A DNA stretch of 42,560 bases from a virus. The stretch is from positions 1 through 42,560 of the IMG/VR virus record IMGVR_UViG_3300002461_000092; one strand, 5' to 3'. The translations under genes were made by a program, and so were the position numbers. This document shows positions 17,085 through 36,363 of this stretch, in pieces. The notes under the pieces were generated by a model, which did not search any database, was not told the DNA's origin, and saw only the letters and a list, made by a program, of their open reading frames with translations. Each line of letters begins with the position of its first letter. Position 1 is the first letter of the stretch.

Positions 17085-17115
17085 TTGACTGCCAAGGCGG
17101 GATGGTGTCTATAGG
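17085..17115 (+). promoter_or_regulatory. sigma70-like early promoter candidate 1
   Basis: TTGACT, a 17-nt spacer, then TCTATA (or TATAGG with a 19-nt spacer). It overlaps a copy of the ACTGCCAAGGCGGGA motif. Confidence 0.35.
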
Positions 17116-17256
17116 GGCCATCGACGCCGCAAGCGCCACCCGGCCCCGGCTAGATACCTTCCAAGGCGCTCCGCCCCCATACCTACGGGGGAGAGGCTAG
17201 GGCAGGGGAACCGCCCTCCCGCAAGGGACTGGCGAGCGGGTCTAAGGCGGCCCCGT

Positions 17257-17273
17257 TGATCCTCCCTAGCAAG
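17257..17273 (+). repeat. intergenic motif copy, B-like variant (TGATCCTCCCTAGCAAG)
   Basis: It shares TGATC..C..CCTAGCAAG with the copies at 29087 and 20547. Confidence 0.4.
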
Positions 17274-17297
17274 TCTAGCCCGCACCGGGCAGGCGAA

Positions 17298-17316
17298 AAA
17301 TCACTGCCAAGGCGGG
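17298..17316 (+). repeat. intergenic motif copy, type A (TCACTGCCAAGGCGGG), abutting the -35 of early promoter 2
   Basis: A 16-nt core identical to the copies at 19570 and 27836. Confidence 0.7.
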
Positions 17317-17345
17317 TTGACAAGCCGGGACGGATCGCTTAGGTT
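17317..17345 (+). promoter_or_regulatory. sigma70-like early promoter candidate 2
   Basis: A perfect TTGACA, a 17-nt spacer, then TAGGTT. It lies about 370 nt upstream of the first early ORF and points rightward. Confidence 0.5.
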
Positions 17346-17384
17346 CGAGACATCAAGTGCAGCGGCGCCGGGCCTCTCCCGGTC

Positions 17385-17406
17385 GGACCCTAGGCCGGAC
17401 CCTAGG
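17385..17406 (+). repeat. tandem direct repeat GGACCCTAGG-CC-GGACCCTAGG in the early leader
   Basis: Two identical 10-mers with a 12-nt period. The second continues as CCTAGGAC, the motif also seen at 14481, 14491 and 18255. Confidence 0.6.
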
Positions 17407-17718
17407 ACTGACAAGAGATTTCGTCGCCGGGCGCGTAAGTCCCGGCAGGCCGACACGGGCTGGTCCCCTTTGTCCCCGCGACAGAACGCGGCGGTTGGGG
17501 AAGTGGGTAGGCGCTACTAGTAGTCGGCTAGAGGCGTGGGGGATTGTGCGACTACCCCATGTCCGAAGGCAGGCTGGTCTCGGGGCGGAGTGTCACAACG
17601 TAAGGCGTGACCATAGAGTGATATTGCCCGCTTTTAAGTGGCAATCTGCCGGTGGTTTGGCACCCATCGGCCCTCTATTGAGCCCCGTCATCCGGCGGGG
17701 TTGAACTGAGGCATAGCC

Positions 17719-17997
17719 ATGTCTTCCATGTCCCTAGAGCTGCCCCTTCCGGGCGGCAAGGCCAAGGCAGTCATTTTCGAGGAACGGGGCCAGTGGGGCC
17801 TGTACCTCGCAGACGGCGCCAAGCGCCCCATCGGCAAGGGTGTCGCCCTCAACCGTGCTCAGGTGGCGGCCCTCCGCACCTGCGATCCGAAGTGGCAGGC
17901 CAGCATGATTTGGGCCCTGCTTGGCTACGGCAAGCGCGGTCCCCGCAAGCCTCTCGCCATGGCCATGTGTCACCCCGGCACCGGTCGCATGGCCTGA
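17719..17997 (+). CDS. hypothetical early protein
   Basis: 92 aa. It is the first ORF after the early promoters, with GAGG 9 nt upstream of the ATG. Confidence 0.5.
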   Translation: MSSMSLELPLPGGKAKAVIFEERGQWGLYLADGAKRPIGKGVALNRAQVAALRTCDPKWQASMIWALLGYGKRGPRKPLAMAMCHPGTGRMA

Positions 17998-18015
17998 TCA
18001 CTACCTACGCAGGAG
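17995..18015 (+). repeat. intergenic motif copy, type B (TGATCACTACCTACGCAGGAG)
   Basis: It starts at the stop codon of the upstream ORF and ends in the SD of the next ORF. Confidence 0.5.
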
Positions 18016-18023
18016 TACCGCGA

Positions 18024-18224
18024 ATGGTCTACCTCTCCCGCCGAACGGCTCAGGCGGCCGCACACTACCGCCTGAGAAGAGGTCGCTGCGCCCGCTTCGA
18101 GTTGCGCCCTGCGACCGTGCGGAACCCCGATAAGACCGTCGAGATTGGCTTCAAGGTGGCCACCTTCGATGCGCGGGGACGCTTTCTCGGCAACCTCTCC
18201 ACCCTTCCCGTCCCCGCTGCCTAA
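18024..18224 (+). CDS. hypothetical early protein
   Basis: 66 aa, with AGGAG 8 nt upstream of the ATG. I trimmed the track ORF 17793..18224. Confidence 0.45.
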   Translation: MVYLSRRTAQAAAHYRLRRGRCARFELRPATVRNPDKTVEIGFKVATFDARGRFLGNLSTLPVPAA

Positions 18225-18340
18225 GCGGGGCGAATGCTCCCATCGTCTAATTGGCCTAGGACGCCCGGCCCCTCAGCTGGGAGATGCAGGCTCGTATCCT
18301 GCTGGGAGCGCCATTCACCCAACCACCCGCAAGGTGTCCC

Positions 18341-18538
18341 ATGACCACTCCCGCCTACCTCAACCGTTGCGTTGGGCTCGCCCTCACGCTGGTCCGGCGC
18401 AACCCGTTCTGCCCCTTCTGCAAGGCGGCGCTGGACCACCTCAACCACGCCCGGCGGCTCGCCAAGGCTGGCTTCCAGTCGGCGGCCACCATCGCCCTGT
18501 GGCGGGCCTCCCGGCAGTTGAAGCGGGCGGGCATCTGA
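18341..18538 (+). CDS. hypothetical early protein
   Basis: 65 aa, with AAGG 6 nt upstream of the ATG. I trimmed the start from 18284. The stop overlaps the next start (TGATG). Confidence 0.4.
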   Translation: MTTPAYLNRCVGLALTLVRRNPFCPFCKAALDHLNHARRLAKAGFQSAATIALWRASRQLKRAGI

Positions 18539-18750
18539 TGACAGTGATCGCCAACCCCCACGTGTGGATCAAGCGCCCCTCCAGATACGTCCTGCGGGTG
18601 CAAGGCAACGTTCCTCACTATGAGGACGAGGTGGTCATCCGCCTTCCTCGCCAAGACCCGGACGCGGCGGCGAGGCTCGTCCTGCGATCCTACCTCGCGA
18701 TTGGGTGCTCACTGGGCTACGTGCTCGCTGACTTCCCCGGCTACAGGTGA
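18538..18750 (+). CDS. hypothetical early protein
   Basis: 70 aa. The ATG overlaps the previous stop. I trimmed the track ORF 18145..18750. Confidence 0.4.
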   Translation: MTVIANPHVWIKRPSRYVLRVQGNVPHYEDEVVIRLPRQDPDAAARLVLRSYLAIGCSLGYVLADFPGYR

Positions 18751-18754
18751 CGCC

Positions 18755-18823
18755 ATGATGGTCCCCGACTGGATCGGCTTCCCGCTCACCATCGCCCTCA
18801 TCGGGCTCCTTTTCGCCCTCTGA
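18755..18823 (+). CDS. 22-aa hydrophobic peptide (MMVPDWIGFPLTIALIGLLFAL)
   Basis: Nearly every third codon position is G or C (one T). AGGTGA lies upstream and the peptide has one predicted TM segment. It falls below the ORF-track length cutoff. Confidence 0.35.
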   Translation: MMVPDWIGFPLTIALIGLLFAL

Positions 18824-18834
18824 CGGAGGGCCCG

Positions 18835-19569
18835 ATGTTCCCTTTCGACTGGCTCAAACGGCGCCTAGAGGCTGCCAAGGCAGGAGCAAGACGCATGGCT
18901 AGCACGAGCAGCTACAGAACCCCGCATGAGGTGCGGGAGGCAATCGACGGGATGGCCGGGGACGACTGGCTCCAGCAGGCCATCGAGCACTGGCAGTGGT
19001 CCGGCGCCCAATGGTGCTACCGCACCGACAAGGCCACGCCGCGGCTGGGCCCGCCCCCGCTCGCCGTGTTGGCCAACTTTCGGTACTCCGTGGTGGTCAC
19101 CCACCTGATGGGCTCTGGCCTGAACCTGCTCGGTAAGGGCTGCTACGGCGCCGTCTTCGAGCTGAGCCCGGATGACCGGTGGGTTTACAAGCTGGTCGCT
19201 GTGTCCCGCAACGTGCCCTACCTGTCCTACGTCCGGTGGGCCAGGGAGATGCGTACCGGGCCGAACAAGCGGGATGCGTGGGTGCGGTGCCTGCCCCGCG
19301 CCAAGATACTCTTCGAGGACAAGTGGTTCGCCCTGATCCGGGTCGAGCGGCTGGTCGAGCAGCGCGGCAAAGTCACGGCATACGACGCCGGCGAGCACAT
19401 CGCGTACACCTCGACGCCCGGTACCCCGGCGTTCGAGCCCTACCTCGAAGCGACCGACCGCATCAAGCGGTGGTCCCGGTTCTGGAACGACATGCACACC
19501 GGCAACATCATGCTGCGCCCCACCAAGTGCGGCACCTACGAGCCCGTCCACACCGATCCGGTGTGCTGA
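18835..19569 (+). CDS. protein kinase-like early protein (functional analogue of T7 gp0.7?)
   Basis: Gly-loop LGKGCYGAV, VYK lysine, catalytic-loop-like DMHTGN (D-x4-N), and a terminal TDP in the DFG position. The protein ends right after it. Confidence 0.5.
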   Translation: MFPFDWLKRRLEAAKAGARRMASTSSYRTPHEVREAIDGMAGDDWLQQAIEHWQWSGAQWCYRTDKATPRLGPPPLAVLANFRYSVVVTHLMGSGLNLLGKGCYGAVFELSPDDRWVYKLVAVSRNVPYLSYVRWAREMRTGPNKRDAWVRCLPRAKILFEDKWFALIRVERLVEQRGKVTAYDAGEHIAYTSTPGTPAFEPYLEATDRIKRWSRFWNDMHTGNIMLRPTKCGTYEPVHTDPVC

Positions 19570-19586
19570 TCACTGCCAAGGCGGGA
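19567..19586 (+). repeat. intergenic motif copy, type A (TGATCACTGCCAAGGCGGGA)
   Basis: 20/20 identical to 27833-27852. It starts with the kinase-like gene's stop codon. Confidence 0.85.
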
Positions 19587-19615
19587 CACCGCCAGCCAAG
19601 CAAGGAGAAACACGC

Positions 19616-19843
19616 ATGTCCATCACTGCGAAAGCGCCCGCCTCCCGCTCCTACCCCTACGTGGGCGGCCTCAAGTCCGAAGCCCGCCGCGAAGCCGGCG
19701 ACGAGCGTATCGTCCTGTTCACCGGCCCCGGTAAGGGCATCCAGATCGGCGGCAACATCGGCACCATCGGCGACGCGGCCAGCAACTGGCGCGAGGACTG
19801 CTTCGACCCGCTGCCCCGCGGCACCGCCCTCTACGTCGCCTGA
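19616..19843 (+). CDS. hypothetical early protein
   Basis: 75 aa, with AAGGAG 8 nt upstream of the ATG. Confidence 0.5.
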   Translation: MSITAKAPASRSYPYVGGLKSEARREAGDERIVLFTGPGKGIQIGGNIGTIGDAASNWREDCFDPLPRGTALYVA

Positions 19844-19860
19844 TCGCTGCCTAGCCGGGA
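19841..19860 (+). repeat. intergenic motif copy, type A variant (TGATCGCTGCCTAGCCGGGA)
   Basis: 17/20 identical to the consensus. It spans from the stop codon to the A of the next ATG. Confidence 0.6.
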
Positions 19861-20549
19861 TGAGACGCCCGACTGCGCTCGTCGGGATGGAGAGCAGCGG
19901 CACGATCCGCCGCGCCCTCCGTGCCGCCGGCATCGACGCCTATTCATGCGACCTACTGCCGGCCGACGACGGCAGCCCGCACCACATACAAGGAGACGTG
20001 TTCGCCCACCTCGACATGGGCTGGGACCTGGCCATCTTCCACCCGACATGCACGTACCTCACGTGCGCTGCGGAGTGGGCGTATGGCGACGGCCCCTACC
20101 ACCAGCGTGTCCGGCCCGACACCCTAGTCGGGGCGGCCAGACGGGCGGCGCGTGAAGCCGCCATCGCAGACGTGAGACGCCTCTTGTCTGCGCCCATCCC
20201 GCGCATCGCAGTCGAGAACCCGGTGGGTGTTCTCTCGTCCCGTGTGCGGCGCCCGGATCAAGTGATCCAGCCCCACCAATTCGGGGACGATGCCAGCAAG
20301 GGCACCTGCCTGTGGCTGGTCAACCTCCCCAACCTCCAGCCCACCAGACGGGTGGCCGGACGCATGGTCGAGTACCGTGGCCGGCTGGTCGAGAGGTGGG
20401 CCAACCAGACAGACAGCGGACAGAACCGGCTGCCACCTACCAGCGACCGCTGGAAGCTGCGGAGCGCCACCTACCCAGGCATTGCCGCCGCCATCGCAGA
20501 CCAGTGGGGCCGGCTTCTGCTGCCCCTCCACGCCACCGTCACGACCTGA
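19860..20549 (+). CDS. compact DNA (cytosine-5)-methyltransferase-like protein
   Basis: 229 aa. Motif I-like VGMESSGTIRRAL, motif IV-like HPTCTYLT, motif VI-like AVENPVG, C-terminal RSATYPGIAAAIADQWG. The start is uncertain (alternative ATG 19887). I trimmed the track ORF 19179..20549. Confidence 0.5.
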   Translation: MRRPTALVGMESSGTIRRALRAAGIDAYSCDLLPADDGSPHHIQGDVFAHLDMGWDLAIFHPTCTYLTCAAEWAYGDGPYHQRVRPDTLVGAARRAAREAAIADVRRLLSAPIPRIAVENPVGVLSSRVRRPDQVIQPHQFGDDASKGTCLWLVNLPNLQPTRRVAGRMVEYRGRLVERWANQTDSGQNRLPPTSDRWKLRSATYPGIAAAIADQWGRLLLPLHATVTT

Positions 20550-20567
20550 TCGCTACCAAGCAAGGAG
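20547..20567 (+). repeat. intergenic motif copy, type B (TGATCGCTACCAAGCAAGGAG)
   Basis: A stop-to-SD cassette, closely similar to 29087-29107. Confidence 0.6.
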
Positions 20568-20575
20568 CAACTCCC

Positions 20576-22243
20576 ATGCCCGGCCTGAACCTGCCCGACC
20601 TGTCTGTCGGCTTCATCGACATGGCTGCCGTCATGTCCGGCCCGCTGCCCCCGGTGCAGCCCATGCCCCGTGGCCCGGCGCCCGTCGAGGTGCCCGACCT
20701 CGTAGTCGATCCGAACACGGTCTATGCCGTGGTCGCCAAGCGACTGGTCGAGCTTCGGCGGGGCGACGAGAACGTGGCTGAGCTTGCCAAGCGCCTCGCT
20801 GCCCTGCCTGCGGTGGCCCCGAAGGCGGCCATGCTGACGGACCGGAGGGAGTATGACCACTCCACCGAGCGGGAGGTCGTAGCCGATGCTCCGCGCTACA
20901 GCCTGTCCAACATCGGGTCGTTCTTCTTCAGCTACGTCGCCTTCCACCGGTCTCCCGGCAACGTGATGTACTGGCACGACTGGGCGTACCACCTGCGCTA
21001 CGGGCACGAAGTCACCGCCGTCATGCGCGAACACCCCACCCTGCCCACCAAGCAGTGGGAGGTGCGCGAGATCGTACGCTGCTCGGACGGCACCTACTTC
21101 GCCCTGCCGTGGGCCGAAGACCTCGCCCCCATCCCCCGCCACTACGCCCACATCAGCACCGTCGATCCGACCATGGTGTCCTACACCCCGGACGATGCAA
21201 AGGGCGTGGCCGACCGGCAGGTTCGCATGAAGCCGGGCCGGTACCTCGCCAAGTACTACCCCGACATGGACGCCGACGACGTGCGGAAGTACGCCGCCAT
21301 GCTGGACGCCTCGTTCACCGAGCTGCACCTCGCCACCACCGCCGACGAGATCGAGCACGTCTACACCCACGGCCCGTCGTCCTGCATGTCCTACCCGGCG
21401 AGCAGCTTTGACAGCCCGTTCCACCCCGCCCGGGTCTACGCCGCCGGCGACCTGGCCGTAGCGTACACCAAGAAACCGGACGGCAAAATCTCGGGGAGGT
21501 GTCTGGTGTGGCCGGAGAAGAAACTCCGGGGCCGCATCTACGGGGACATCGACCGCATGAAGCTGCTGCTCAAGTCCAACGGCTATGCCCCGCACGAGGA
21601 CAGTCTCGACGGTGCCCGGCTGGTCAAGCACGAGGTCGGCAACGGCAGCGGCGTGTACGTCATGCCCTACATCGACAACTCCAACTCGTTCGGCCACTCG
21701 TCGTGCCGCAAGTTTCTCGTGATCGGTGGGTGCAGCGCCGCCGCCTACACCCACGGCCTGTCTCAGAACGGCACCTACTGCCCCCGTATGGACGACTATG
21801 TGGACGATGACAGCGAGGACTTCGTCTACATCGAGGACCGGGACGAGCGCTGGTCGCCCACGGCGGTAGACCTCTACGCCCAGGTCTGCGACCGCACCGG
21901 AGACGTCTACTCCGACGACGCCGAGTTCCACGACGTGATCGTTCCGCACTATCACTGGAACACCGGGCGGATGGTCGGCCGAAACCGTGAGAGCTGGTGT
22001 GCCAGCGCCGTCGAGCGCCACGCCTGGCTCTGCGATGCCACCGAGAACTACCTCTCCGACGCCATCGCCGGTGTCGAGGTGGTGGACATCGGCACCGTGG
22101 ACCCGAAGTGGGCCGAGGAGAACTGCACCGCCTGCGCTGTGAGCGGTGACCTCTACGAGACTGACCAGCTAGTTCCGAACAAGGACGGGGACCTCGTCCA
22201 CCCGGACCACCTTGCCGACACGGAGGCTGACGCCTCCGCCTGA
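20576..22243 (+). CDS. 555-aa early protein of unknown function
   Basis: AAGGAG lies 8 nt upstream of the ATG. I trimmed the start from 20312. The central block reads KPGRYLAKYY...EIEHVYTHGPSSCMSY. The C-terminus has four Cys-anchored acidic repeats. Confidence 0.7.
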   Translation: MPGLNLPDLSVGFIDMAAVMSGPLPPVQPMPRGPAPVEVPDLVVDPNTVYAVVAKRLVELRRGDENVAELAKRLAALPAVAPKAAMLTDRREYDHSTEREVVADAPRYSLSNIGSFFFSYVAFHRSPGNVMYWHDWAYHLRYGHEVTAVMREHPTLPTKQWEVREIVRCSDGTYFALPWAEDLAPIPRHYAHISTVDPTMVSYTPDDAKGVADRQVRMKPGRYLAKYYPDMDADDVRKYAAMLDASFTELHLATTADEIEHVYTHGPSSCMSYPASSFDSPFHPARVYAAGDLAVAYTKKPDGKISGRCLVWPEKKLRGRIYGDIDRMKLLLKSNGYAPHEDSLDGARLVKHEVGNGSGVYVMPYIDNSNSFGHSSCRKFLVIGGCSAAAYTHGLSQNGTYCPRMDDYVDDDSEDFVYIEDRDERWSPTAVDLYAQVCDRTGDVYSDDAEFHDVIVPHYHWNTGRMVGRNRESWCASAVERHAWLCDATENYLSDAIAGVEVVDIGTVDPKWAEENCTACAVSGDLYETDQLVPNKDGDLVHPDHLADTEADASA

Positions 22244-22260
22244 TCCCTCCAACCCGACAA

Positions 22261-22280
22261 CAACCACTGACAAGGCGGGA
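22261..22280 (+). repeat. intergenic motif copy, type A variant (CAACCACTGACAAGGCGGGA)
   Basis: 16/20 identical to the consensus. It lies upstream of the peptidase-like gene. Confidence 0.55.
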
Positions 22281-22307
22281 TGCCGCCGACCAAATCAGGA
22301 GGGTGAC

Positions 22308-23279: not shown

Positions 23280-23291
23280 GAGGAGAACCCC

Positions 23292-23381
23292 ATCGACCCC
23301 CTGCTTCTGGCCGTGTTCATCCTCCCGATCCTGTGGGTGGCAGTAGCCATCATCATCGCGGGGTTGACGGGCCATCTTTAG
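23292..23381 (+). CDS. possible small hydrophobic peptide (start codon unclear)
   Basis: A high-GC3 frame encodes ...LLLAVFILPILWVAVAIIIAGLTGHL. AGGAG lies 6 nt before ATC 23292. The first canonical in-frame start is GTG 23313. Confidence 0.25.
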   Translation: MDPLLLAVFILPILWVAVAIIIAGLTGHL

Positions 23382-23436: not shown

Positions 23437-23694
23437 GTGAGTGCGTACCTGACTGACACACCCCCCGACCACGACACGGTGTGGGGGTGGCTGGCCCGCA
23501 ACGAGCCGTGGGTGCTGGGCACGATGTCCGACCCGGTGCTGGGCTGCTTGGGGGACCAGACCAAGGCCATGGAGTTCGCGCAGAGAGCCGGGCTGGAGTT
23601 CATCCACGTGCCCGCCCCGCCCGCTCTCCGGGCCCGGGGCATCCCCGAAGCCTTCGCCTTCCCTACCTCCGTGCTACACGACGTGTTCCCCTGA
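23437..23694 (+). CDS. hypothetical early protein
   Basis: 85 aa, with a GTG start and GAGGAG upstream. A 10-codon upstream ORF ends in GTGA at this start. Confidence 0.5.
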   Translation: MSAYLTDTPPDHDTVWGWLARNEPWVLGTMSDPVLGCLGDQTKAMEFAQRAGLEFIHVPAPPALRARGIPEAFAFPTSVLHDVFP

Positions 23695-23711
23695 TTGCTG
23701 ACAGGGCGGGA
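23692..23711 (+). repeat. intergenic motif copy, type A variant (TGATTGCTGACAGGGCGGGA)
   Basis: 16/20 identical to the consensus. It starts at the stop codon of the upstream ORF. Confidence 0.55.
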
Positions 23712-25410: not shown

Positions 25411-25441
25411 CGTGGCACCACTGACAATCTGAGGAGAACTG

Positions 25442-27835
25442 ATGCAGAACATCGACCTTGAGCAGCGCATGAGAGACGCCGGCGTGGCCCGCGCCCGGAC
25501 CATTGCCGCCCGTGCCGCTGACCGTGGGGTCATCTCCGAGACGCCGGCCGGGGTGGCCGCCATCCGCAACCTGATCCGCCCGACCACGCTCAAGATTGCC
25601 GAGTGGATGGTCGAGACGGAGGCCCGCACCTCGGGCAAGCGCGGCCGGCCACCCCACCTGTTCCGCCTGTGCGGCGGGATGGACCCGGAGGTCCTCGCCT
25701 ACCTGACCAGCAAGGTGGCCATCGACAAGGCCGCCTCCGGCCACTCCCTCACCCGCCTCGCCAGCGCCGTGGGCATGGCCATCGAGGACGAGCTGCGCCT
25801 AGCTGACTTCGAGGCCGCCGACCCCGGCCTGTTCGGCGCCATCGAGCGCACCCTGCGCCAGCGCTGCTCCAGCCCCGAGCACCAGCGCAAGGTGTGGAAC
25901 GCCAACGCCGTGAAGCGAGGCATCGAGATCACCCGCTGGACCAAGAACGAGCGGGTCAACGTGGGCCTGACGCTGGCCGACCTGTTCATCCAAGCGTCCG
26001 GCCTCATCGAGACCTACCTCATGCCCCTCGGCCGCAACCGCTGGCAGTACCAGACCCGCCTCACCGCCGCCGCCCGGGCGTGGATGGAGGACCGCACCGA
26101 CAAGGCCGGCCTCCTCCGCCCCATGTACCTGCCCACCACCCAGCCCCCGCTGCCGTGGGCGGACACCATTGGTGGCGGCTACGGGCTGGACAAGCTGGTC
26201 CCCATGCCGCTGGTCAAGCGCACCTACCGTGCCCACGTCGAGGCCCTCCAGGCCGCCGATCTGAGCCGGGTGTACCGCTCCCTCAACGCCATCCAAGACA
26301 CGGCTTGGCGGGTCAACACGCCCGTCCTCGACGTGATGAAGGAGGCGTGGGACCGGGGCCTGCTCACGGACATCCTGCCTGCCCACGACGACCGGCCGCT
26401 TCCACCCCGGCCGGACGCGCCCCCCGACAGCGACGAGTTGCGGGCGTGGAACAAGGCAGCCCGTGACACCTACGAGTTCAACGCCAAGTCCCGGGCGCAG
26501 CGGCTTGAGTTCGCCCGCCTCCTCGGGCTGGCCGACGAGCTGCGTGACGCCCCGGCCCTCCACTTCCCCCACCAGCTGGACTTCCGGGGCCGGGTGTACG
26601 CCGTGCCTGCCGGGCTCAACCCGCAGGGCCCCGACGAGGCCCGGTCGCTGCTCACCTTCACCCACGGTAAGCCGGTCGATGGCTCCGCCTTCTGGTGGCT
26701 GAACGTCCACGGTGCCAACACCTTCGGCTTCGACAAGGTGTCGATGTCCGAGCGGGCCCAGTGGGGGCAGGATAACAGGGCCCGGGCTGCGTCCGTGGTT
26801 GCCGACCCCCTTGGCGACCTGTGGTGGACTGAGGCCGACAAGCCGTGGTCCTTCCTAGCGTGGTGCTTCGAGGTGTGCCGCACTGACGGCCTGTCCTCCC
26901 TCCCCATCGCCCTCGACGGCACGTGCAACGGCCTCCAGCACTTCTCGGCCATGCTCCGTGACCCGGTGGGCGGCGCCGCGGTCAACCTCACCCCGTCCTC
27001 CAGCCCGCAGGACATCTACCAGCGGGTGGCCGACCGGACCATGGAACTGCTCCGCGTCCGGGCCGCCGAGGACAACCACTGGATGGCCCACGGATGGCTC
27101 GCCTTCGGGATCGACCGCAAGATCACCAAGCGGCCGGTCATGGTGCTGCCTTACGGCGGCACTCGGATCAGCTGCATGGACTACGTGCGGCAGGCCGTGA
27201 AGGAACGGATCGCCGGCGGGCAAGAGAACCCCTTTGGGGACCAGCTCCAAGCCGCCACCACCATGCTGGCGTCCGTCGTGTGGGACGCCATCGGTGACGT
27301 CGTGGTCGCCGCCCGAACCGCCATGCAGTGGCTCCAGTCCGCAGCCCGGGCCGCCACCGCAGCCGGCCTCCCGTGCAGCTGGGTCACCCCCTCGGGGTTC
27401 CCCGCCCATCAGGAGTACCGGGAGGTGAAGGGCCGGCAGATCAAGACCCGGCTCCGCGGGGGCATCATCGCCCCCCTCGATTACGGCGAGGTGGACCGCC
27501 TCGACCGCAGCAAGCAGGCCCTCGGCATCTCGCCCAACTTCGTCCACTCGATGGACGCTGCGGCGCTGGCCCTGACCATCTGCGGCTGCCTCGATGAGGG
27601 CATCACGTCCTTCGCCATGATCCACGACAGCTACGGCACCGTGGCTGCCGACACCGACGCCCTGGCCCGGACCCTGAGAGAGGAGTTCGTTCGCATGTAC
27701 GAGCAGCACGACGTGCTTGCCGAGTTCCGCGACCACCTCCTCGCCCAGCGCCCGACGCTGGAGCTTCCTCCCCTCCCACCGAAAGGCTCCCTCGACATCG
27801 CGCTGGTCCGCCAGAGCCCCTACTTCTTCGCCTGA
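25442..27835 (+). CDS. T7-like single-subunit DNA-directed RNA polymerase
   Basis: 797 aa. Motif A is LPIALDGTCNGLQHFSAMLRD, motif C is MIHDSYGT, and the C-terminus ends in YFFA. GAGGAG lies upstream of the ATG. Confidence 0.97.
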   Translation: MQNIDLEQRMRDAGVARARTIAARAADRGVISETPAGVAAIRNLIRPTTLKIAEWMVETEARTSGKRGRPPHLFRLCGGMDPEVLAYLTSKVAIDKAASGHSLTRLASAVGMAIEDELRLADFEAADPGLFGAIERTLRQRCSSPEHQRKVWNANAVKRGIEITRWTKNERVNVGLTLADLFIQASGLIETYLMPLGRNRWQYQTRLTAAARAWMEDRTDKAGLLRPMYLPTTQPPLPWADTIGGGYGLDKLVPMPLVKRTYRAHVEALQAADLSRVYRSLNAIQDTAWRVNTPVLDVMKEAWDRGLLTDILPAHDDRPLPPRPDAPPDSDELRAWNKAARDTYEFNAKSRAQRLEFARLLGLADELRDAPALHFPHQLDFRGRVYAVPAGLNPQGPDEARSLLTFTHGKPVDGSAFWWLNVHGANTFGFDKVSMSERAQWGQDNRARAASVVADPLGDLWWTEADKPWSFLAWCFEVCRTDGLSSLPIALDGTCNGLQHFSAMLRDPVGGAAVNLTPSSSPQDIYQRVADRTMELLRVRAAEDNHWMAHGWLAFGIDRKITKRPVMVLPYGGTRISCMDYVRQAVKERIAGGQENPFGDQLQAATTMLASVVWDAIGDVVVAARTAMQWLQSAARAATAAGLPCSWVTPSGFPAHQEYREVKGRQIKTRLRGGIIAPLDYGEVDRLDRSKQALGISPNFVHSMDAAALALTICGCLDEGITSFAMIHDSYGTVAADTDALARTLREEFVRMYEQHDVLAEFRDHLLAQRPTLELPPLPPKGSLDIALVRQSPYFFA

Positions 27836-27852
27836 TCACTGCCAAGGCGGGA
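27833..27852 (+). repeat. intergenic motif copy, type A (TGATCACTGCCAAGGCGGGA)
   Basis: 20/20 identical to 19567-19586. It begins with the RNAP stop codon and abuts the phage promoter. Confidence 0.85.
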
Positions 27853-27874
27853 TTAAACTCCTGCACTTGCCTAA
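27852..27874 (+). promoter_or_regulatory. phage RNAP promoter candidate P-middle (ATTAAACTCCTGCACTTGCCTAA)
   Basis: 21/23 identical to 16328-16350. It lies directly after the RNAP gene, at the head of the DNA metabolism module. Confidence 0.75.
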
Positions 27875-28937: not shown

Positions 28938-29089
28938 TGCGCTCCCTTCCCTCCTTACACGCCTTCCGCCTGTATCTCCGCGCCCGCCGCCTGTGGGCGC
29001 AGGGCGAGCCTATCCCCGTCGATCTCGCCTTCGACCTCGCAGCCCTCGGCTACGACGTCCCCGCCCTCGAAGCCCGCTATCTGGGCTAA
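28937..29089 (+). CDS. hypothetical 50-aa protein
   Basis: The ATG overlaps the previous stop (TGATG). I trimmed the track ORF 28847..29089. Confidence 0.4.
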   Translation: MRSLPSLHAFRLYLRARRLWAQGEPIPVDLAFDLAALGYDVPALEARYLG

Positions 29090-29107
29090 TCGCTACCTAG
29101 CAAGGAC
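29087..29107 (+). repeat. intergenic motif copy, type B (TAATCGCTACCTAGCAAGGAC)
   Basis: A stop-to-SD cassette upstream of the SSB gene. Confidence 0.6.
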
Positions 29108-29812: not shown

Positions 29813-29814
29813 TC

Positions 29815-30255: not shown

Positions 30256-30276
30256 CCCTCTTAAGGAGCGACACTC

Positions 30277-30573: not shown

Positions 30574-30575
30574 TC

Positions 30576-30869
30576 ATGGCGAAGTTCAGCAGGGAAGACC
30601 TGACCGACCTCGCCTATGCGTCGGTTGGGGAGGAGTTCGACGGCTTCAAGGTGCTGGTGAACCAGCTCACCGGGTCGAGCCGCTGGTCCAAGCACTATGA
30701 CTTGGTGTTCCGGGCACCGGACGGTAAGTGCTACCGCACACCGTTCAGCGTCGGCGCCACCGAGTATCAGGACGAGGGCCCCTTCGAGCACGACGGCGAC
30801 ACGATCACCGTCACCGAGGTCGAGCCCTTCGAGCGGACCATCACCGACTATCGCGCGGTGTCCGCCTGA
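30576..30869 (+). CDS. hypothetical acidic protein
   Basis: 97 aa and rich in Asp and Glu. Confidence 0.5.
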   Translation: MAKFSREDLTDLAYASVGEEFDGFKVLVNQLTGSSRWSKHYDLVFRAPDGKCYRTPFSVGATEYQDEGPFEHDGDTITVTEVEPFERTITDYRAVSA

Positions 30870-31093
30870 TGCAGGAGTTCATCCTCCTCGCCCCCGACGA
30901 CCGCAAGGTCCTCCATGCGGTGGGCAGCCGGCGACACGCCACCCAAGCGCAGGCCGAGGCGGAGGTCCACGAGATCATCGCCTCGCACCGCCACATCGTG
31001 GTGGCGCAGATCGTCTCCCACTGGCGGGCCAACATTACCGCCCGTGAGTACGACCCGACCGGCGACACCGTGAAGCTCCTGCCCCGCCGATGA
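30869..31093 (+). CDS. hypothetical protein
   Basis: 74 aa. The ATG overlaps the previous stop (TGATG). I trimmed the track ORF 30728..31093. Confidence 0.45.
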   Translation: MQEFILLAPDDRKVLHAVGSRRHATQAQAEAEVHEIIASHRHIVVAQIVSHWRANITAREYDPTGDTVKLLPRR

Positions 31094-32703: not shown

Positions 32704-32945
32704 GCACCCGCTTCTCCATCGAACGCGCCGACAACGGCGGCTACATCCTGACCGACGACAGCCTCCCCAAGGGCTACATCAACCACCCCGCGGCCGCATT
32801 CACCAGCGCCGGCGCCCTGCTCGACTGGCTCCGCACCGACGAAAAGAGCCCGCTAAAGGCGGACCTCAAGGCGTCTGAGAAGGAGCTGGCCGAGGCCATG
32901 CGGATGTATGTGCGCCCCGGTACCATCTACCCCGCCGGCCTGTGA
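32700..32945 (+). CDS. hypothetical protein
   Basis: 81 aa. The TTG start overlaps the gp4-like stop. Confidence 0.45.
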   Translation: MSTRFSIERADNGGYILTDDSLPKGYINHPAAAFTSAGALLDWLRTDEKSPLKADLKASEKELAEAMRMYVRPGTIYPAGL

Positions 32946-33127
32946 TGCCGTCTGAGCCCATCACCTACGAGCCCCCGGGCCCCTTCAACATCCGCATCGA
33001 GCGCGACATCCCCACCGAGCGCGTCCTCATGGAGGTCATGCACGGGCGCGGGGTGTTCGTCTCGTTCGTCCTGTCCACCCAGCAGGCCAGAGAGCTGGCC
33101 GCCAACATCAGGGATGTGTGCAGCTGA
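32942..33127 (+). CDS. hypothetical protein
   Basis: 61 aa, coupled to both neighbours. Confidence 0.45.
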   Translation: MMPSEPITYEPPGPFNIRIERDIPTERVLMEVMHGRGVFVSFVLSTQQARELAANIRDVCS

Positions 33128-35001
33128 GCAAGGTACTGCTCTTCGACATTGAGACCAACGGCCTCCTGCCCGAGCTTGACCGCATCCACTGCCTCGTCAT
33201 CAAGGACCCCACCACCGGCGATGTGTTCTCCTGTTCCGACGCCCCCGCCCACACCGGACCTTCGGTGGATGATGGGCTACGACTTCTTGAAGCAGCAGAC
33301 GCCATTGCCGGCCACAATATCGTGGGCTTCGACCTCCCGGCCATCTGGAAGATCCACCCCGAGTGGGGTCCCCGGTTTCGTACTGGAGGACCCGGTGTCG
33401 TCCGCGATACGATCGTTATGGCCCGCCTCGTCTGGCCTTCCGAGCGCATCCGAGACATGGACTTCACCCGTGTCGGACGCGGGGTCGCCTTCCCCAAGCA
33501 GCTCATCGGACGCTTCTCCCTAGAGGCGTTCGGCTACCGGCTCGGGGAGTACAAGGGCGACTACAAGGGCGGCTGGGACAGCTGGTCCGCGGAGATGCAG
33601 GACTACTGCGTTCAGGACGTAGAGGTCACGCACCGCCTGTGGGACCGCCTCATCAAGGAGCTGACGGACTGGGGCATCGACCCCCTCGATCCGGCCCCGC
33701 CCGCCGGCAAGGACTGCGTCCAGCTTGAGCACGACGTGGCCCGCATCATCGCCCGGCAGGAGCAGCACGGCTTTGCCTTCGACCGCAAGGCCGCGCTCAC
33801 CCTCATGGGCAAGCTGGCCGGCCGCCGCGCCGAGCTGACCGACGACCTCCAGCGGGTGTTCCCGCCCAAGGTCATCGAGACGCCGTTCATCCCCAAGTCC
33901 AACAACTCCAAGCTGGGCTACCGCAAGGGCGAGCTGTTCATCAAGCGCCGCACCGAAGCGTTCAACCCGTCCTCCCGCCGTCAGGTGGCCGAGCGCCTCA
34001 TGGAGCTTGGCTGGAAGCCCGACGAGTTCAACATGGACGGCACCCCCAAGGTGGACGACGACACCCTGTCCTCGCTCCCCTACGAGCCGGCCCAAGTCCT
34101 TGCCGAGTACTTCATGGTGACCAAGCGATTGGGCGCCATCGGAGAGGGCAAGGAAGCGTGGCTCCGGGCTGACCGGGGCGGGCGCATCCACGGCCGCGTC
34201 GAGACCAACGGCGCCGTCACGGGGCGAATGACCCACCAGCGGCCGAACATGGCTCAGGTGCCCGGCAACGCGGCCCCCTACGGCCACGAGTGCCGTTCCC
34301 TCTTCACCGCTTCCGCGGGCCGGGTGCTCGTCGGGTGTGACGCCGACGCCCTGGAGCTGCGCTGCCTCGCGCACTTCATGGCCCGCTACGACGGCGGCGC
34401 GTACATCGAGACGGTCCTCGCCGGGAAGAAGGAGGAGGGCACGGACATGCACACCCTCAACGCCAAGGCGCTGGGGTGCGACCGTGACACCGCCAAGACG
34501 TGGTTCTACGCCTTCATCTACGGGGCTGGGGACTGGAAGCTGGGCTACACCCTGACCGGCAAGAAGGGTCCCCGCCGCAAGATCGCGGCCATCGGGGCCA
34601 AGGCCCGTGAGGACTTCCTCGCCGCCCTGCCCGCCATGGGCAAGCTGGTGAAGGCGGTCAAGGCCGCTGCCAAACGAGGATGGCTTCTCGGCATCGACGG
34701 CCGACACATCTCGATCCGGTCGGACCACGCCGCCCTCAACTCGCTCCTCCAGTCGGCCGGTGCCGTCGTGATGAAGCGGGCGATGATCCTTCTGGATGCC
34801 GCCGCCGCCCACGCTGCCGCCTCTTGGGAGTTCTCGGCCAACGTCCACGACGAGTGGCAGATCGACGCCGAGCCCATGGTGGCCGAGGAGCTGGGCCGCT
34901 GCGCTGCTAGCTCTATCGCCTACGCCGGAGACTTCTACAGCTTCCGGTGCCCCCTCAAAGGCAACCATGTCATCGGCAAGAACTGGGCCGAAACCCACTG
35001 A
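33118..35001 (+). CDS. family A DNA polymerase with 3'-5' exonuclease domain (T7 gp5-like)
   Basis: ExoI LLFDIETNGL, motif A GCDADALELRCLAHF, motif B RDTAKTWFYAFIYGAG, motif C ANVHDEWQ. Confidence 0.95.
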   Translation: MQLSKVLLFDIETNGLLPELDRIHCLVIKDPTTGDVFSCSDAPAHTGPSVDDGLRLLEAADAIAGHNIVGFDLPAIWKIHPEWGPRFRTGGPGVVRDTIVMARLVWPSERIRDMDFTRVGRGVAFPKQLIGRFSLEAFGYRLGEYKGDYKGGWDSWSAEMQDYCVQDVEVTHRLWDRLIKELTDWGIDPLDPAPPAGKDCVQLEHDVARIIARQEQHGFAFDRKAALTLMGKLAGRRAELTDDLQRVFPPKVIETPFIPKSNNSKLGYRKGELFIKRRTEAFNPSSRRQVAERLMELGWKPDEFNMDGTPKVDDDTLSSLPYEPAQVLAEYFMVTKRLGAIGEGKEAWLRADRGGRIHGRVETNGAVTGRMTHQRPNMAQVPGNAAPYGHECRSLFTASAGRVLVGCDADALELRCLAHFMARYDGGAYIETVLAGKKEEGTDMHTLNAKALGCDRDTAKTWFYAFIYGAGDWKLGYTLTGKKGPRRKIAAIGAKAREDFLAALPAMGKLVKAVKAAAKRGWLLGIDGRHISIRSDHAALNSLLQSAGAVVMKRAMILLDAAAAHAAASWEFSANVHDEWQIDAEPMVAEELGRCAASSIAYAGDFYSFRCPLKGNHVIGKNWAETH

Positions 35002-35008
35002 GGGGTGG

Positions 35009-35284
35009 GTGTACGTGATCGCTAACCCGGCATGGCCGGGCTACGTGAAGATCGGCACCGCCCTCGACCTTAAAGACCGCCTCAAGGTCTACAACACCGG
35101 CTCCCCGTTCAGAGACTTCGCCATCACCGCCGCGGCCCGCTTTAAGGACCGGAGGGCGGCTGAGCGCCGTCTTCACGGGGAGCTTAAGGGCCTCAGGGTG
35201 GGGCGCACCGAATGGTACAACCTCCACCCCCTCGACGCCCGCAACCACCTCATAAGGCTGACAAAGCAGGAGCACTGTCAATGA
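35009..35284 (+). CDS. GIY-YIG superfamily / T5orf172-like domain protein
   Basis: 91 aa from GTG 35009. The sequence reads YVIANPAWPGYVKIGTALDLKDRLKVYNTGSPF...ERRLHGELKGLRVGRTEWY. I trimmed the track ORF 34796..35284, which overlaps the polymerase gene. Confidence 0.55.
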   Translation: MYVIANPAWPGYVKIGTALDLKDRLKVYNTGSPFRDFAITAAARFKDRRAAERRLHGELKGLRVGRTEWYNLHPLDARNHLIRLTKQEHCQ

Positions 35285-35448
35285 GCATCGCAGAGGAGAA
35301 AGCATGGGCCAGCGCCCTCGCTACCAAGTACGGCATCAGAGAGCCGACACGCGCCCGCCTGACGTGGGCCGAGGACTACGACGCCTTCCGGCAGGCCCAA
35401 GAATGGACGACTGGGCCGACACCAGCCACCACGGCTACGGCATCGTAG
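35281..35448 (+). CDS. hypothetical 55-aa protein
   Basis: The ATG overlaps the previous stop (ATGA). GC3 drops over the last ~15 codons, where the ORF overlaps the next one. Confidence 0.35.
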   Translation: MSIAEEKAWASALATKYGIREPTRARLTWAEDYDAFRQAQEWTTGPTPATTATAS

Positions 35449-35570
35449 TCCATGAGGGAGACGACACCCCCGAGTGGTACGACACCGGCATCCTCGACCC
35501 CGCCGGCGACCCGATCTACGGGCGCATCTACCGGCCTCAGGTCGGCTTCATCCACCGAGATGACGAGTGA
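35403..35570 (+). CDS. hypothetical 55-aa protein
   Basis: GC3 is very high. The stop overlaps the GTG start of the exonuclease gene. I trimmed the start from 35304. Confidence 0.45.
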   Translation: MDDWADTSHHGYGIVVHEGDDTPEWYDTGILDPAGDPIYGRIYRPQVGFIHRDDE

Positions 35571-36328
35571 CCCGCACGCTCCTCATCGACGCTGACATTT
35601 TCGTCTACCGCGCCGCCTTCGCCTGCCAGCGGGACTACGACTGGGACGGGGACGGCGACAAGGCCAGCGTCACGGACTTCGAGGAGGCCAAGCTGGCCTT
35701 CCAAGACCTTGTGGACGGCGCCCTAGCCGACGCCGACTGGCCGGACTACGTCATCTGCCTGTCCGACAGCGAGCCCTGCTACCGCCGCGACTTCTACCCC
35801 ACCTACAAGGGCAACCGGAGCAACCGTCCGGTCCTCTACTCGGACCTCCGGCAGTGGATCATCGACCAGCCGAAGTGGCGCACCTACCTCCGCCCCCGGC
35901 TGGAGGCAGACGACATCCTCGGCATCCTCGCGACCCACCCGAAGCTCATCCCCGGGCAGAAGATCATCTACTCCGGTGACAAGGACCTCCGCCAAATCCC
36001 CGGCCTGCACCTCGACGTGCGGGACGGCGACATGGTGACGGTCACGCCCGAGGAGGCGGAGCACTTCTTCCTTGCCCAGGTCCTCACCGGCGACCCCGTG
36101 GACAACTACCCCGGCTGCCCCGGCATCGGCCCCGTCAAGGCCGCCCGCATCCTCGACACCGACGCCCCGTGGCCGGCCATCGTGGCCGCTTACGAGGCCA
36201 AGGGTCTGACCGCCGACGACGCCCTCATCCAAGCCCGCTGCGCCCGCATCCTCAGGGCCACCGAGTACGACTTCAAGAACAAGGAACCGATCCTCTGGAA
36301 CCCACCCGCTGCGTCCACTGTGGCGTAA
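35567..36328 (+). CDS. 5'-3' exonuclease (T7 gp6-like, FEN family)
   Basis: LLIDADIFVYRAAF, GDKDLRQIPG, and the H3TH motif GDPVDNYPGCPGIGPVKAARIL. Confidence 0.9.
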   Translation: MTRTLLIDADIFVYRAAFACQRDYDWDGDGDKASVTDFEEAKLAFQDLVDGALADADWPDYVICLSDSEPCYRRDFYPTYKGNRSNRPVLYSDLRQWIIDQPKWRTYLRPRLEADDILGILATHPKLIPGQKIIYSGDKDLRQIPGLHLDVRDGDMVTVTPEEAEHFFLAQVLTGDPVDNYPGCPGIGPVKAARILDTDAPWPAIVAAYEAKGLTADDALIQARCARILRATEYDFKNKEPILWNPPAASTVA

Positions 36329-36363
36329 CCAGCACTGATCCCTGCCTCACTGCCGCGTACGCA

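Follow-up and report, generated by a model that had tools for sequence, protein, structure and literature searches.

An intergenic motif family of early and middle genes in a temperate T7-like phage: a candidate extended ribosome-binding-site leader

A repeated intergenic motif family, here denoted E1, is confirmed in the window, i.e., the whole 42,560-nucleotide stretch of viral DNA that was analyzed. The window is a circularly permuted genome of 42,466 bp, from a temperate T7-like phage with an RNA polymerase (RNAP) of its own; the host is probably an alphaproteobacterium. E1 comprises 15 good copies, all located on the plus strand between 17083 and 35272 and none in the structural genes. 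Eight copies (type B) carry both an SD sequence and a start codon, while the other seven (type A) have no start codon. Judged from the sequence, we lean towards reading E1 as an extended ribosome-binding-site (RBS) leader, or ‘start-associated sequence’, that precedes early and middle genes. It would act on the mRNA, forming the 5' portion of the region bound by the ribosome.

The E1 family and its delimitation

The constant part of E1 is a core, ATC-R-CT-R-M-C-W-A, situated 2-4 nt 5' of GGAG or GGGA. A formal search with TCACTGCCAAGGCGGGA, allowing up to three mismatches, returned six matches, all on the plus strand, against 0.27 expected. The type B consensus returned two matches against zero expected, and the shared core TCRCTRCCWAG with at most one mismatch returned 12, again all on the plus strand, against 3.1 expected. 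With a 15-nt PWM, ten sites (17083, 17298, 17995, 19567, 19841, 20547, 22261, 23692, 27833 and 29087) score 16-25, or 8.6-24 under leave-one-out scoring. No equally good match exists on the minus strand or in a structural gene, where the top matches (12.6 and 10.6, respectively) are both in the random range.

An initial annotation of the same DNA had already described a motif family that spares the late region, which is correct. All strings that it listed are present at the coordinates given, and the motif is also found in related genomes. Two copies had been overlooked (18868-18886 and 35253-35272). Among the partial copies that it proposed, the one at 25417 is genuine (15.1 with a PWM of the 5' half; conserved in the 88% relative L184), whereas those at 17257 and 36336 do not score above chance and are degenerate remnants at best. 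Similarly, one of its three additional TGATC contexts, at 22241 (TGATCCCTCCAAC), looks like a degenerate copy (TGATCCCTCCAACCC, 22241-22255) on the stop codon of a 555-aa gene; 30571 and 41113 are merely stop contexts and were rejected as E1 copies. The family had been described as anchored to stop codons, and an upstream stop codon does open the motif at seven out of ten core sites (six TGA, one TAA). This pattern is real but is not the functional core, as the stop codon is absent from copies without an upstream gene (17298, 18868, 22261 and 25415). The anchoring is apparent because upstream genes end exactly at the 5' edge of the motif; it would follow from the close packing of the genes, whose translation is probably coupled, and would not be a separate signal.

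E1 copies at gene starts and gene ends

In the window and eight relatives taken together, the core alone occurs 114 times on the plus strand versus 24 times on the minus strand. The composite of core, N2-4, SD, N3-11 and start codon occurs 29 times on the plus strand and three times on the minus strand, compared to 0.5 by chance (40 shuffles, maximum two). Translational (re)initiation, one of the candidate functions in the initial annotation, gains support from this excess and from an internal start in the primase/helicase gene of relatives (see below). E1-type RBSs precede eight of about 38 early and middle genes and none of about 22 late genes (p = 0.019). The gap between SD and start codon is 5-10 nt in the eight type B copies, and 8-10 nt at 17995, 20547 and 29087. 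At these three sites the upstream gene stops exactly at the 5' edge of the motif, leaving a stop-start spacer of approximately 26-28 nt.

The type B copy at 17995..18015 (TGATCACTACCTACGCAGGAG) opens with the TGA of gene 17719-17997, and its AGGAG is the SD for ATG 18024. A newly found type B copy at 18868..18886 (GAGGCTGCCAAGGCAGGAG) is followed by 8 nt and then by ATG 18895 of a gene with a weak match to the gp0.7 kinase. This ATG is the true start of the gene, because GC3 climbs from 0.60 to 0.92 at 18895. The TGA of the same gene (18895-19569) opens a type A copy at 19567..19586 (TGATCACTGCCAAGGCGGGA), directly followed by a B-like half copy at 19587..19607 (CACCGCCAGCCAAGCAAGGAG) that gives the SD for ATG 19616; the CCGCC of the half copy can pair with the GGCGG of the A copy before it (GGCGG-GACA-CCGCC). 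This tandem, already noted in the initial annotation, is real and recurs at 22261..22302, where a type A copy (CAACCACTGACAAGGCGGGA) precedes a B-like half (TGCCGCCGACCAAATCAGGAGG) whose SD, from 22281, serves ATG 22308 of a peptidase gene. In L182 the orthologous site (6832) is a single B-type site. Between the two tandems, the TGA of gene 19616-19843 opens a type A copy at 19841..19860 (TGATCGCTGCCTAGCCGGGA) upstream of a DNA methyltransferase gene (start 19860 or 19887, end 20549). The TGA of the latter opens a type B copy at 20547..20567 (TGATCGCTACCAAGCAAGGAG), orthologous to L182 site 5185, with the SD for ATG 20576 of the 555-aa gene. Further downstream, the TGA of gene 23437-23694 opens the most divergent copy, type A at 23692..23711 (TGATTGCTGACAGGGCGGGA), upstream of a MarR gene (23747-24121).

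The type B copy at 25415..25436 (GCACCACTGACAATCTGAGGAG) is the RBS of the RNAP gene (ATG 25442); it is kept in L184 and has an equivalent in L001. Likewise, L182 conserves the RBS copies of the peptidase gene and the 536/555-aa gene. At 29087..29107 (TAATCGCTACCTAGCAAGGAC), the TAA of a small upstream gene opens a type B copy with the SD for ATG 29117 of the SSB gene. Its position is kept in all clade members, with the RBS copy conserved in L184, L182, L101, L001, L186, L187 and L188, and in a diverged form in Mesorhizobium phage Lo5R7ANS. Another newly found type B copy, at 35253..35272 (TAAGGCTGACAAAGCAGGAG), lies within the last codons of a T5orf172/MUG113 gene (35009-35284) and provides the SD for ATG 35281, which overlaps that gene as ATGA. 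The same arrangement, with E1 in the last codons and an ATGA overlap start, occurs in L188 at 10972.

A further argument comes from the primase/helicase gene of L001, L101, L187 and L188, which contains the motif internally. There it directly follows the zinc finger, GGGAG or AGGAG stands at +3, and a GTG at +13 is in frame. T7 gp4B has its internal start at this position. Such a location favors an RBS element, as a promoter, terminator or cassette linker would have no reason to be there. The core lies 5' of the SD and therefore cannot extend the pairing with the 3' tail of 16S rRNA. Rather, it may improve or regulate initiation through the ribosome itself (e.g., protein S1 or the mRNA-exit side of the platform), or it may be read by a phage or host factor. 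On terminating at the stop codon, a ribosome would already be positioned over the motif and might pass straight to the next start.

Nonetheless, the RBS-leader reading does not account for the seven type A copies (…AAGGCGGGA, …GGCGGGA), i.e., seven out of 15, which keep the core and an SD-like GGGA with no start codon at SD spacing. Two are located in the non-coding genome-end region: a variant at 17083..17102 (CGTTGACTGCCAAGGCGGGA), overlapping a sigma-70-like string (TTGACT-N18-CTATAG), and a copy at 17298..17317 (AAATCACTGCCAAGGCGGGT), immediately next to the -35 box of TTGACA(17317)-N17-TAGGTT, a likely host early promoter. The orphan at 27833..27852, at the RNAP stop codon, must have a role other than gene start. 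It is conserved in all clade members examined (L184, L182, L185, L101, L001, L186, L187 and L188) and adjoins a putative phage promoter, with a 4-nt overlap with the 5' flank of the latter. Relatives at a greater distance often have, at the two positions conserved across the clade, small hairpins that pair an anti-SD-like arm with an SD-like arm. This suggests a role in structure or occlusion that is not clearly kept by the copies in the window. The likeness among copies may also stem partly from recent copying rather than per-base selection, the copies at 19567 and 27833 being identical in 20 out of 20 positions.

Alternative explanations

The promoter next to the 27833 orphan belongs to a second motif, P (consensus GG[GC]ATT[TA]AA…CACTT/GCCTAA), which we infer to be the phage RNAP promoter and distinct from E1. 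Its three copies in the window are all on the plus strand. They lie at 16325..16350 (GGCATTTAACTCCTACACTT/GCCTAA; predicted +1 at 16345), just after the large terminase gene (end 16316) and thus matching the position of T7 phiOR; at 27849..27874 (GGGATTAAACTCCTGCACTT/GCCTAA; predicted +1 at G 27869), just after the RNAP gene; and at 36800..36825 (GGGATTTAAGTCATACACTT/GCCTAA; predicted +1 at 36820), a putative late promoter upstream of the portal gene. The initial annotation did not recognize a T7-like phage with its own RNAP and therefore missed these copies and left a promoter role for E1 unweighed. As the phage promoter itself, E1 was rejected: its 5' half is identical in the window, L184, L182 and L185, yet their RNAP recognition loops and P boxes differ. 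It is unlikely, too, that E1 forms a second, weaker class of promoters for the single-subunit RNAP, comparable to the T7 class II promoters and starting at GGGA or GGAG. Such a class would fit a 20-nt, asymmetric, plus-strand-only element whose 5' end (TGATC or TAATA) is richer in AT and whose copies are homogeneous inside each genome. The 3' GGGA resembles the T7 +1 GGGAGA, GGGATG is read in three type A copies, and the type A core CACT/GCCAAG is similar to the P start region CACTT/GCCTAA. E1 copies also immediately precede the SSB and RNAP genes, where ONT-cappable-seq mapped phage-specific promoters in the temperate T7-like phage LUZ100 (PMC10134795). However, P is by far the better T7-type promoter, with a 16-18-nt upstream part opening with GATTA and a conserved start region G/CCTAA. 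The positions of its triad are conserved in Lo5R7ANS and L182, and the sequence of P, unlike the 5' half of E1, drifts together with the recognition loops of the RNAP. Moreover, the majority of E1 copies in the window are found 5' of the RNAP gene, with none before late genes, and their distance to the start codon is SD-like, including at the internal start that is in frame within the primase gene of relatives.

Quite unlikely is an RNA structure or processing element, i.e., a cistron-end stem-loop for 3'-end stability, attenuation or cleavage, like the RNase III sites that separate the early genes of T7. Many relatives do carry, 3' of the RNAP gene, a stop codon followed by 2-5 nt and a 4-8-bp hairpin with varying stems (CTCCG/CGGAG, TCCCG/CGGGA, TTGCA/TGCAA and others). 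L005 and L048 have 8-11 strong hairpins between early genes with a related 5' arm (TTCCCTGCCAT). In the window, the canonical A copy has a folding energy of -7.6 to -9.2 kcal/mol, A copies 19567 and 22261 may form GGCGG-N4-CCGCC with downstream sequence, and the PHROG annotation of the gp0.7 kinase family, of which the phage has a weak homologue, includes ‘positively regulates RNaseIII’. Yet the ten window copies have no common fold (z-scores -2.4 to +2.3), which leaves this candidate of the initial annotation unsupported, and for type B and several type A copies, shuffled sequences give short folds that are equally good. Among 121 relatives, a hairpin after the RNAP stop with z < -1.5 occurs in 27%, versus 15% of in-gene controls, which is not a significant difference (p = 0.11). 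No T-runs, terminator-like sites or Rfam family were found, and a terminator directly 5' of the SSB gene would sever the replication genes from their only upstream promoter.

A cassette difference from a relative is seen at one place in the window. A window-specific 980-bp cassette (19580-20546), comprising a 75-aa ORF and the DNA methyltransferase gene, lies exactly between the E1 copies at 19567 (left boundary) and 20547 (right boundary). L182 lacks the cassette and has a single copy there, and collinearity between both genomes runs up to, and resumes from, the 13-nt repeat. This lends support to the recombination linker envisaged in the initial annotation; being dispersed 13-nt direct repeats, the E1 copies are, as a side effect, places of cassette gain and loss. 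Very unlikely, by contrast, is that E1 is only a dispersed linker without expression function, persisting through cassette recombination or co-copying. In addition to the cassette and the identity of copies 19567 and 27833, this would agree with four type A copies besides 27833 that have no A-type equivalent in L182 (nothing there matches 17083, 17298 or 23692, and a single type B site takes the place of 22261), and with 19567 and 19841 flanking genes that L182 lacks. Against it, the SSB and RNAP copies stay put across phages whose RNAPs are just 56-88% identical, the distances from core to SD and start codon are fixed, and the motif is retained within coding sequence at the gp4B-like internal start. 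The comparison covered a single cassette boundary, and the indel of any cassette has to break between genes, which is where E1 sits. Hardly credible, finally, is an operator array through which a MarR-like or winged-helix protein of the phage silences early genes in the lysogen. The phage encodes both MarR and an HTH_39 protein (30277-30573), the MarR gene and the RNAP gene are each preceded by one E1 copy, and the LUZ100 study passes on a proposal according to which, in temperate T7-like phages, the promoter 5' of the RNAP gene is flanked by MarR sites (PMC10134795). Still, the operator array put forward in the initial annotation finds no support, as E1 is asymmetric without a dyad and occurs at gene junctions rather than promoters and, in relatives, inside coding sequence. 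A much better operator candidate, the nearly palindromic GGTGACACGTGGCACC (25404-25419), adjoins it; L182 has GTCACC/GGTGAC inverted repeats at the corresponding place, and L184 has similar but weaker ones.

Relation to start-associated sequences

The initial interpretation is thus partly supported. It had likened the family to the start-associated sequences (SAS) of cluster K mycobacteriophages. Although the literal cluster K SAS consensus is absent here, the analogy is apt, and these sequences are the closest analogues of E1.

Distribution of motif E1 and its genomic setting

Motif E1, an intergenic element with the core ATC-R-CT-R-M-C-W-A placed 2-4 nt 5' of GGAG or GGGA, occurs in the window in 15 copies, all on the plus strand and all within 17083-35272. 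Mismatch searches and scans with position weight matrices (PWMs) bear out the family described in the initial annotation, every listed string of which is found: ten strong sites are recovered (17083-29087, all on the plus strand), the late and structural genes are free of E1, and the minus strand of the window offers no comparable match. The partial copies at 17257 and 36336, which were the weakest on the original list, score at chance. Further copies are contributed by a PWM of the 5' half (25415, in front of the gene for the single-subunit RNA polymerase, RNAP) and by a core search at clade level (18868 and 35253). The RNAP gene has 11 of the 15 copies on its 5' side, and the late genes are not preceded by any. 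Slightly altered versions recur in the closest relatives, namely L001 and L101 (…CCTGCCAAAACGGGAG), L182, L184 and L185 (TGATC.CT.CCAA…) and L186-L188, and every member of the clade carries E1 at two sites, the RNAP stop codon and the SSB ribosome-binding site. An exact scan of viral contigs returned a single match, unrelated, in a contig of 41% GC. Coding-bias k-mers dominate a de novo k-mer search in such high-GC DNA; the motif of L001 was nevertheless recovered.

Bases 1-94 are an exact repeat of 42467-42560. Because of this 94-bp terminal overlap, the window is taken as a circular assembly of 42,466 bp, and its coordinates are therefore permuted with respect to the physical molecule, whose ends probably fall within 16350-17300; the non-coding stretch 16320-17718 is the genome-end region. 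Every real gene is on the plus strand and the G+C content is about 67%. Pfam assigns a T7-type gene set, all on the plus strand, with a large terminase (14580-16316), a MarR-like regulator (23747-24121), a tyrosine integrase (24096-25136), the RNAP (25442-27835), a T7-type SSB (29117-29812), endonuclease I (29815-30255), a primase/helicase (31090-32703), a DNA polymerase (33118-35001), a 5'-3' exonuclease (35567-36328), a portal (37274-38902) and a major capsid protein (41421-42368). The nearest named relatives, all T7-like and of Alphaproteobacteria, are Mesorhizobium phage Lo5R7ANS and prophages of Xanthobacter, Bradyrhizobium and Mesorhizobium. The gene order, which runs from early genes through MarR, integrase, RNAP and small genes to SSB, is similar to that of the temperate T7-like phage LUZ100 (PMC10134795).

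Some features of this genome are recorded in their own right. A tRNA-Leu(CAA) gene (25183-25269) separates the integrase and RNAP genes, and the contigs L186-L188 open with tRNA-like sequence just 5' of their RNAP genes, which suggests an attachment site in or beside this tRNA. Directly 3' of the DNA polymerase gene lies a small T5orf172/MUG113 gene (GIY-YIG-related; 35009-35284), also present at this place in L186 and apparently in L187 and L188, which may be a homing-endonuclease-like insertion. The 830-aa tail-fibre gene contains collagen-like GGN-NNN-NNN (Gly-X-Y) repeats with a period of 9 nt (11568-12046). Finally, a non-coding block at about 17513-17660, 5' of the first early gene, is some 95% identical to L182, compared with only about 72-82% for its flanks and 74% for the RNAPs, and is a candidate for a conserved leader, small RNA or regulatory region.

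E1 as a probable leader of translation starts

On balance, we favour a reading of E1 as an extended ribosome-binding-site leader of early and middle genes and regard cassette exchange as a side effect. The 3' GGAG or GGGAG is the Shine-Dalgarno (SD) sequence of the next gene in eight window copies and in most copies of the relatives. In these eight (type B), the SD lies within the motif and a start codon follows 5-10 nt on; neither applies to the seven type A copies, which end in AAGGCGGGA with no start codon in range. When a core, an SD at +2 to +4 and a start codon are counted as one composite, nine genomes together hold 29 on the plus strand, against three on the minus strand and 0.5 in shuffles.

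The most telling case is internal to a gene. T7 gene 4 yields two proteins, gp4A and gp4B, the latter made from an internal ribosome-binding site. In L001, L101, L187 and L188, a copy of E1 sits at this gp4B-start position within the primase/helicase gene, just past the zinc finger, with an in-frame GTG 3' of it at SD spacing. As in T7, an SD and an in-frame start thus stand just past the primase zinc-finger region, and initiation there would yield a shorter, helicase-only product. In the relatives the internal site bears the full E1 core, which makes it one of a motif family spread over the genome instead of an isolated ribosome-binding site; the motif seems to dictate the protein sequence encoded there, PTKTGE. 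At the same place the window has GAAGGA-N6-GTG in frame (31205-31233; GTG at 31231) with a degenerate core, the probable internal start of a predicted gp4B-like, helicase-only protein. Two other copies, at 35253 and at position 10972 of L188, are embedded in the final codons of one gene and serve an ATGA-overlapping start. In the kinase-like early gene, GC3 rises from 0.60 before 18895 to 0.92 after it and a full E1-type ribosome-binding site is present at 18895, so that the gene probably starts at ATG 18895 rather than at 18835. A copy inside the RNAP gene of L001 and L101 was set aside as probably a coding coincidence; it encodes CLP(K/N)RED, where the window has ILPAHDD and no motif. Pairing of the E1 core with the 3' tail of 16S rRNA is ruled out by geometry, as the core lies 5' of the SD, where the rRNA tail is exhausted.

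The initial annotation also described the motif as anchored on the stop codon of the upstream gene. The overlap with stop codons holds, but the stop is not part of the functional core, since the four copies that have no upstream gene (17298, 18868, 22261 and 25415) carry AAA, GAG, CAA or GCA in place of TGA or TAA. The leader's 5' edge is just where upstream genes terminate. At the type B junctions 17995→18024, 20547→20576 and 29087→29117, the distance from the first base of the stop to the ATG is constant at 29-30 nt, a geometry that would set a terminating ribosome on the leader, which makes translational coupling a reasonable, predicted consequence.

Of the type A copies, that at the stop codon of RNAP is kept across the clade, and its GGGA overlaps the conserved 5' flank GG[GC]ATT[TA]AA of a separate three-copy motif, P. 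The other six have no equivalent type A copy in L182: those at 17083, 17298 and 23692 lack any counterpart there, 22261 is matched by a single type B site, 19567 by the single type B copy at 5185 of L182, and 19841 lies inside a segment missing from L182. Several of the six are almost the same as the one at 27833, of which they look like recent copies. At 19567 and 22261, the real SD comes from a B-like half 3' of type A, and a GGCGG-N4-CCGCC stem can form between the two.

Promoters, hairpins and operators

Immediately 3' of the type A copy at 27833 lies GGGATTAAACTCCTGCACTTGCCTAA, a copy of motif P (GG[GC]ATT[TA]AA…CACTT|GCCTAA). This copy (27849-27874, after the RNAP gene) has near-identical counterparts just after the terminase gene (16325-16350) and just before the portal and late genes (36800-36825), all on the plus strand; at up to three mismatches, the window contains these three copies against none expected. 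In the complete genome of Lo5R7ANS, a version particular to that phage, GA(T/A)TAGGGCCTCTACTAG, occurs exactly three times, in the same three places (12985, 22930 and 45000), and L182, with an RNAP 74% identical, has the triad at the same places as TTAAGGCCCACAACAGCCTAA (2453, 12409 and 21671). Aligned across the clade, the P boxes consist of a 16-18-nt upstream part opening with GATTA and a conserved G|CCTAA, in a register that agrees with the promoter consensus of K11 and SP6. This is the layout of T7-group promoters (T7 consensus TAATACGACTCACTATAG, quoted in PMC10134795). As in that group, P combines a recognition part of about 17 nt, an AT-rich 5' end, a conserved initiating G, fixed positions and co-drift with the polymerase: its upstream part varies among the window, L184, L182 and L185, and so do the recognition loops of their RNAPs. 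Given this layout, these positions and this co-variation, P is a probable phage-RNAP promoter with predicted start sites. Its three positions are comparable to those of T7 phi1.1A, which is annotated 26 nt past gene 1, a late promoter and phiOR. The recurrence of the same triad in the window, Lo5R7ANS and L182 suggests that this phage group uses only about three polymerase promoters.

The main rival to the leader reading is that E1 itself is a promoter of the phage RNAP, which we consider quite unlikely. Both E1 and T7-group promoters are asymmetric, intergenic, about 20 nt long and confined to one strand; their 5' end is richer in AT, their 3' end is rich in G, and in both some copies overlap the upstream stop codon. 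Yet the 5' half of E1 is unchanged in the window, L184, L182 and L185 although the recognition loops differ at several positions, its spacing to start codons is of the SD type, and it lacks the placement of a promoter (3' of the polymerase gene, ahead of the middle and late blocks), a role that P takes in the window. An unlikely alternative of another kind is an RNA operator, bound by a dedicated trans-acting factor (a small RNA, or a protein of phage or host) through which translation of the entire early and middle set would be turned on or off, with the orphan type A copies as docking sites. This T7-like phage would then have a translational regulon similar to RegA control in T4, and the orphans would dock ribosomes or the factor, stabilising or insulating transcripts. 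As for an array of RNase III-like hairpins, no common structure was found within ±30-60 nt of ten sites or in folded cores of 22-26 nt; T7-type RNase III sites are irregular inter-cistronic hairpins of about 20 bp, and 90-nt folds at the ten sites gave no hairpin in common (z from -2.4 to +2.3). Rfam contains no family matching E1. To our knowledge, the likeness of E1 to sigma-54, ECF -35/-10, CsrA-type GGA, T7 class II pause (ATCTGTT) and phiKMV-type nick consensus sequences is limited to 3-5 nt or has the wrong spacing.

A consensus scan of 16300-30300 found no sigma-70 promoter-like sites, and terminator-like sites at the level of shuffles. By eye, promoter-like strings touch only the two genome-end copies of E1: TTGACA-N17-TAGGTT (17317-17345), which aligns with a ..TATATT string of L182, and TTGACT-N18-CTATAG (17086-17115), both missed by the consensus scan. 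From their sequence these are likely host sigma-70-type early promoters. A hairpin 3' of the RNAP stop is a weak trend only among 121 relatives. Many more distant relatives carry small hairpins at the RNAP-stop and SSB positions in which an anti-SD-like arm pairs with an SD-like arm, and these may be the ancestral form of E1. In the early regions of L005 (1300-3960) and L048 (3860-7920), whose RNAPs are 47-48% identical, 8-11 strong hairpins lie close to stop codons; they consist of TTCCCTGCCAT..ATGGCAGGGG followed by GTTTGTCACTTTTC, their 5' arm resembles E1, and they may be its terminator-like relative.

E1 has no dyad that would mark it as an operator on DNA, and a better candidate is at 25404-25419, just 5' of the RNAP ribosome-binding site. 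This near-palindrome, GGTGACACGTGGCACC, is a candidate operator of the MarR-like repressor, through which polymerase expression would be controlled. At the same place L182 has GTCACC/GGTGAC inverted repeats, L184 has weaker similar ones and L186 has GGTGACAA direct repeats. With apparently only three polymerase promoters, at fixed positions, and an abundant intergenic motif that is probably not the promoter, the regulatory map of this temperate T7-like group is corrected, which bears on annotation and on the mining of new RNAP-promoter pairs.

Cassette boundaries and start-associated sequences

Relative to L182, the window holds 980 bp extra, 19580-20546, with a DNA methyltransferase gene and an ORF of 75 aa. 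Collinearity of the two genomes extends through the 13-nt TGATC.CT.CCAA at 19567 and resumes with this 13-mer at 20547, and L182 has one E1 copy where the window has those at 19567 and 20547. The segment thus bears the signature of a putative gain or loss by recombination between E1 copies, although this E1-bounded indel is a single case and every cassette indel must break at gene boundaries anyway. A known parallel is offered by the PeSL cassettes of T4-type phages, in which repeated regulatory motifs lie between small, non-essential early genes and recombination accounts for the segments inserted, deleted or replaced when close relatives are compared (Arbiol et al. 2010, PMC2839356). E1 copies likewise bound an indel between close relatives, in one case, and would mark places of early-gene cassette exchange. 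PeSL, however, is a composite of about 50-70 bp with a strong sigma-70 promoter and a stem-loop terminator (PMC2839356), whereas E1 is about 20 nt long and has no sigma-70 consensus, no terminator and no common fold.

In its apparent mode of action, E1 is closest to the start-associated sequences (SAS and ESAS) of cluster K mycobacteriophages, described in 2011 (Pope et al. 2011, PMC3203893), a likeness already drawn in the initial annotation. SAS are short and asymmetric, occur in one orientation in the non-structural part of the genome only, and lie at the position of the ribosome-binding site, typically 3-7 bp 5' of the start codon, with an AGGAG core and conserved bases that are unable to pair with 16S rRNA; the upstream stop codon is sometimes inside the SAS (PMC3203893). 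A function in translation initiation was proposed but not proven (PMC3203893), and was still untested in 2025 (PMC12699233). E1 shares the asymmetry, the single orientation (15/15 on the plus strand), the restriction to the non-structural part, with none among the late genes, and, in its eight type B copies, the ribosome-binding-site position with the SD inside the motif. Both are conserved across sub-lineages ahead of unrelated genes, and both have a subset with an extra upstream element. The likeness does not extend to family membership: with up to two mismatches, the SAS consensus GGGATAGGAGCCC gives two matches in the window against 2.3 expected, both on the minus strand in structural genes. 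This absence, together with unrelated phage and host lineages, places E1 outside the SAS family, as SAS phages are siphoviruses of Actinobacteria and the E1 phage is a T7-like podovirus with a probable Gram-negative alphaproteobacterial host. Moreover, the conserved extra bases of E1 lie only 5' of the SD, while SAS has them on both sides, nearly half of the E1 copies are orphans without a start codon, and one type of E1 copy marks an internal, in-frame, gp4B-like start in relatives. The placement of E1 at the RNAP gene, the SSB gene and this internal start is conserved. Few systems would be easier to test than T7-like phages, which offer small genomes, a defined polymerase and simple reporters. 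Should E1 act as an RNA operator, start-associated sequences would be a general phage strategy with independent origins in actinobacterial siphoviruses and proteobacterial podoviruses. As a second, unrelated start-associated example, in a T7-like phage, E1 indicates that the phenomenon is not confined to one phage cluster.
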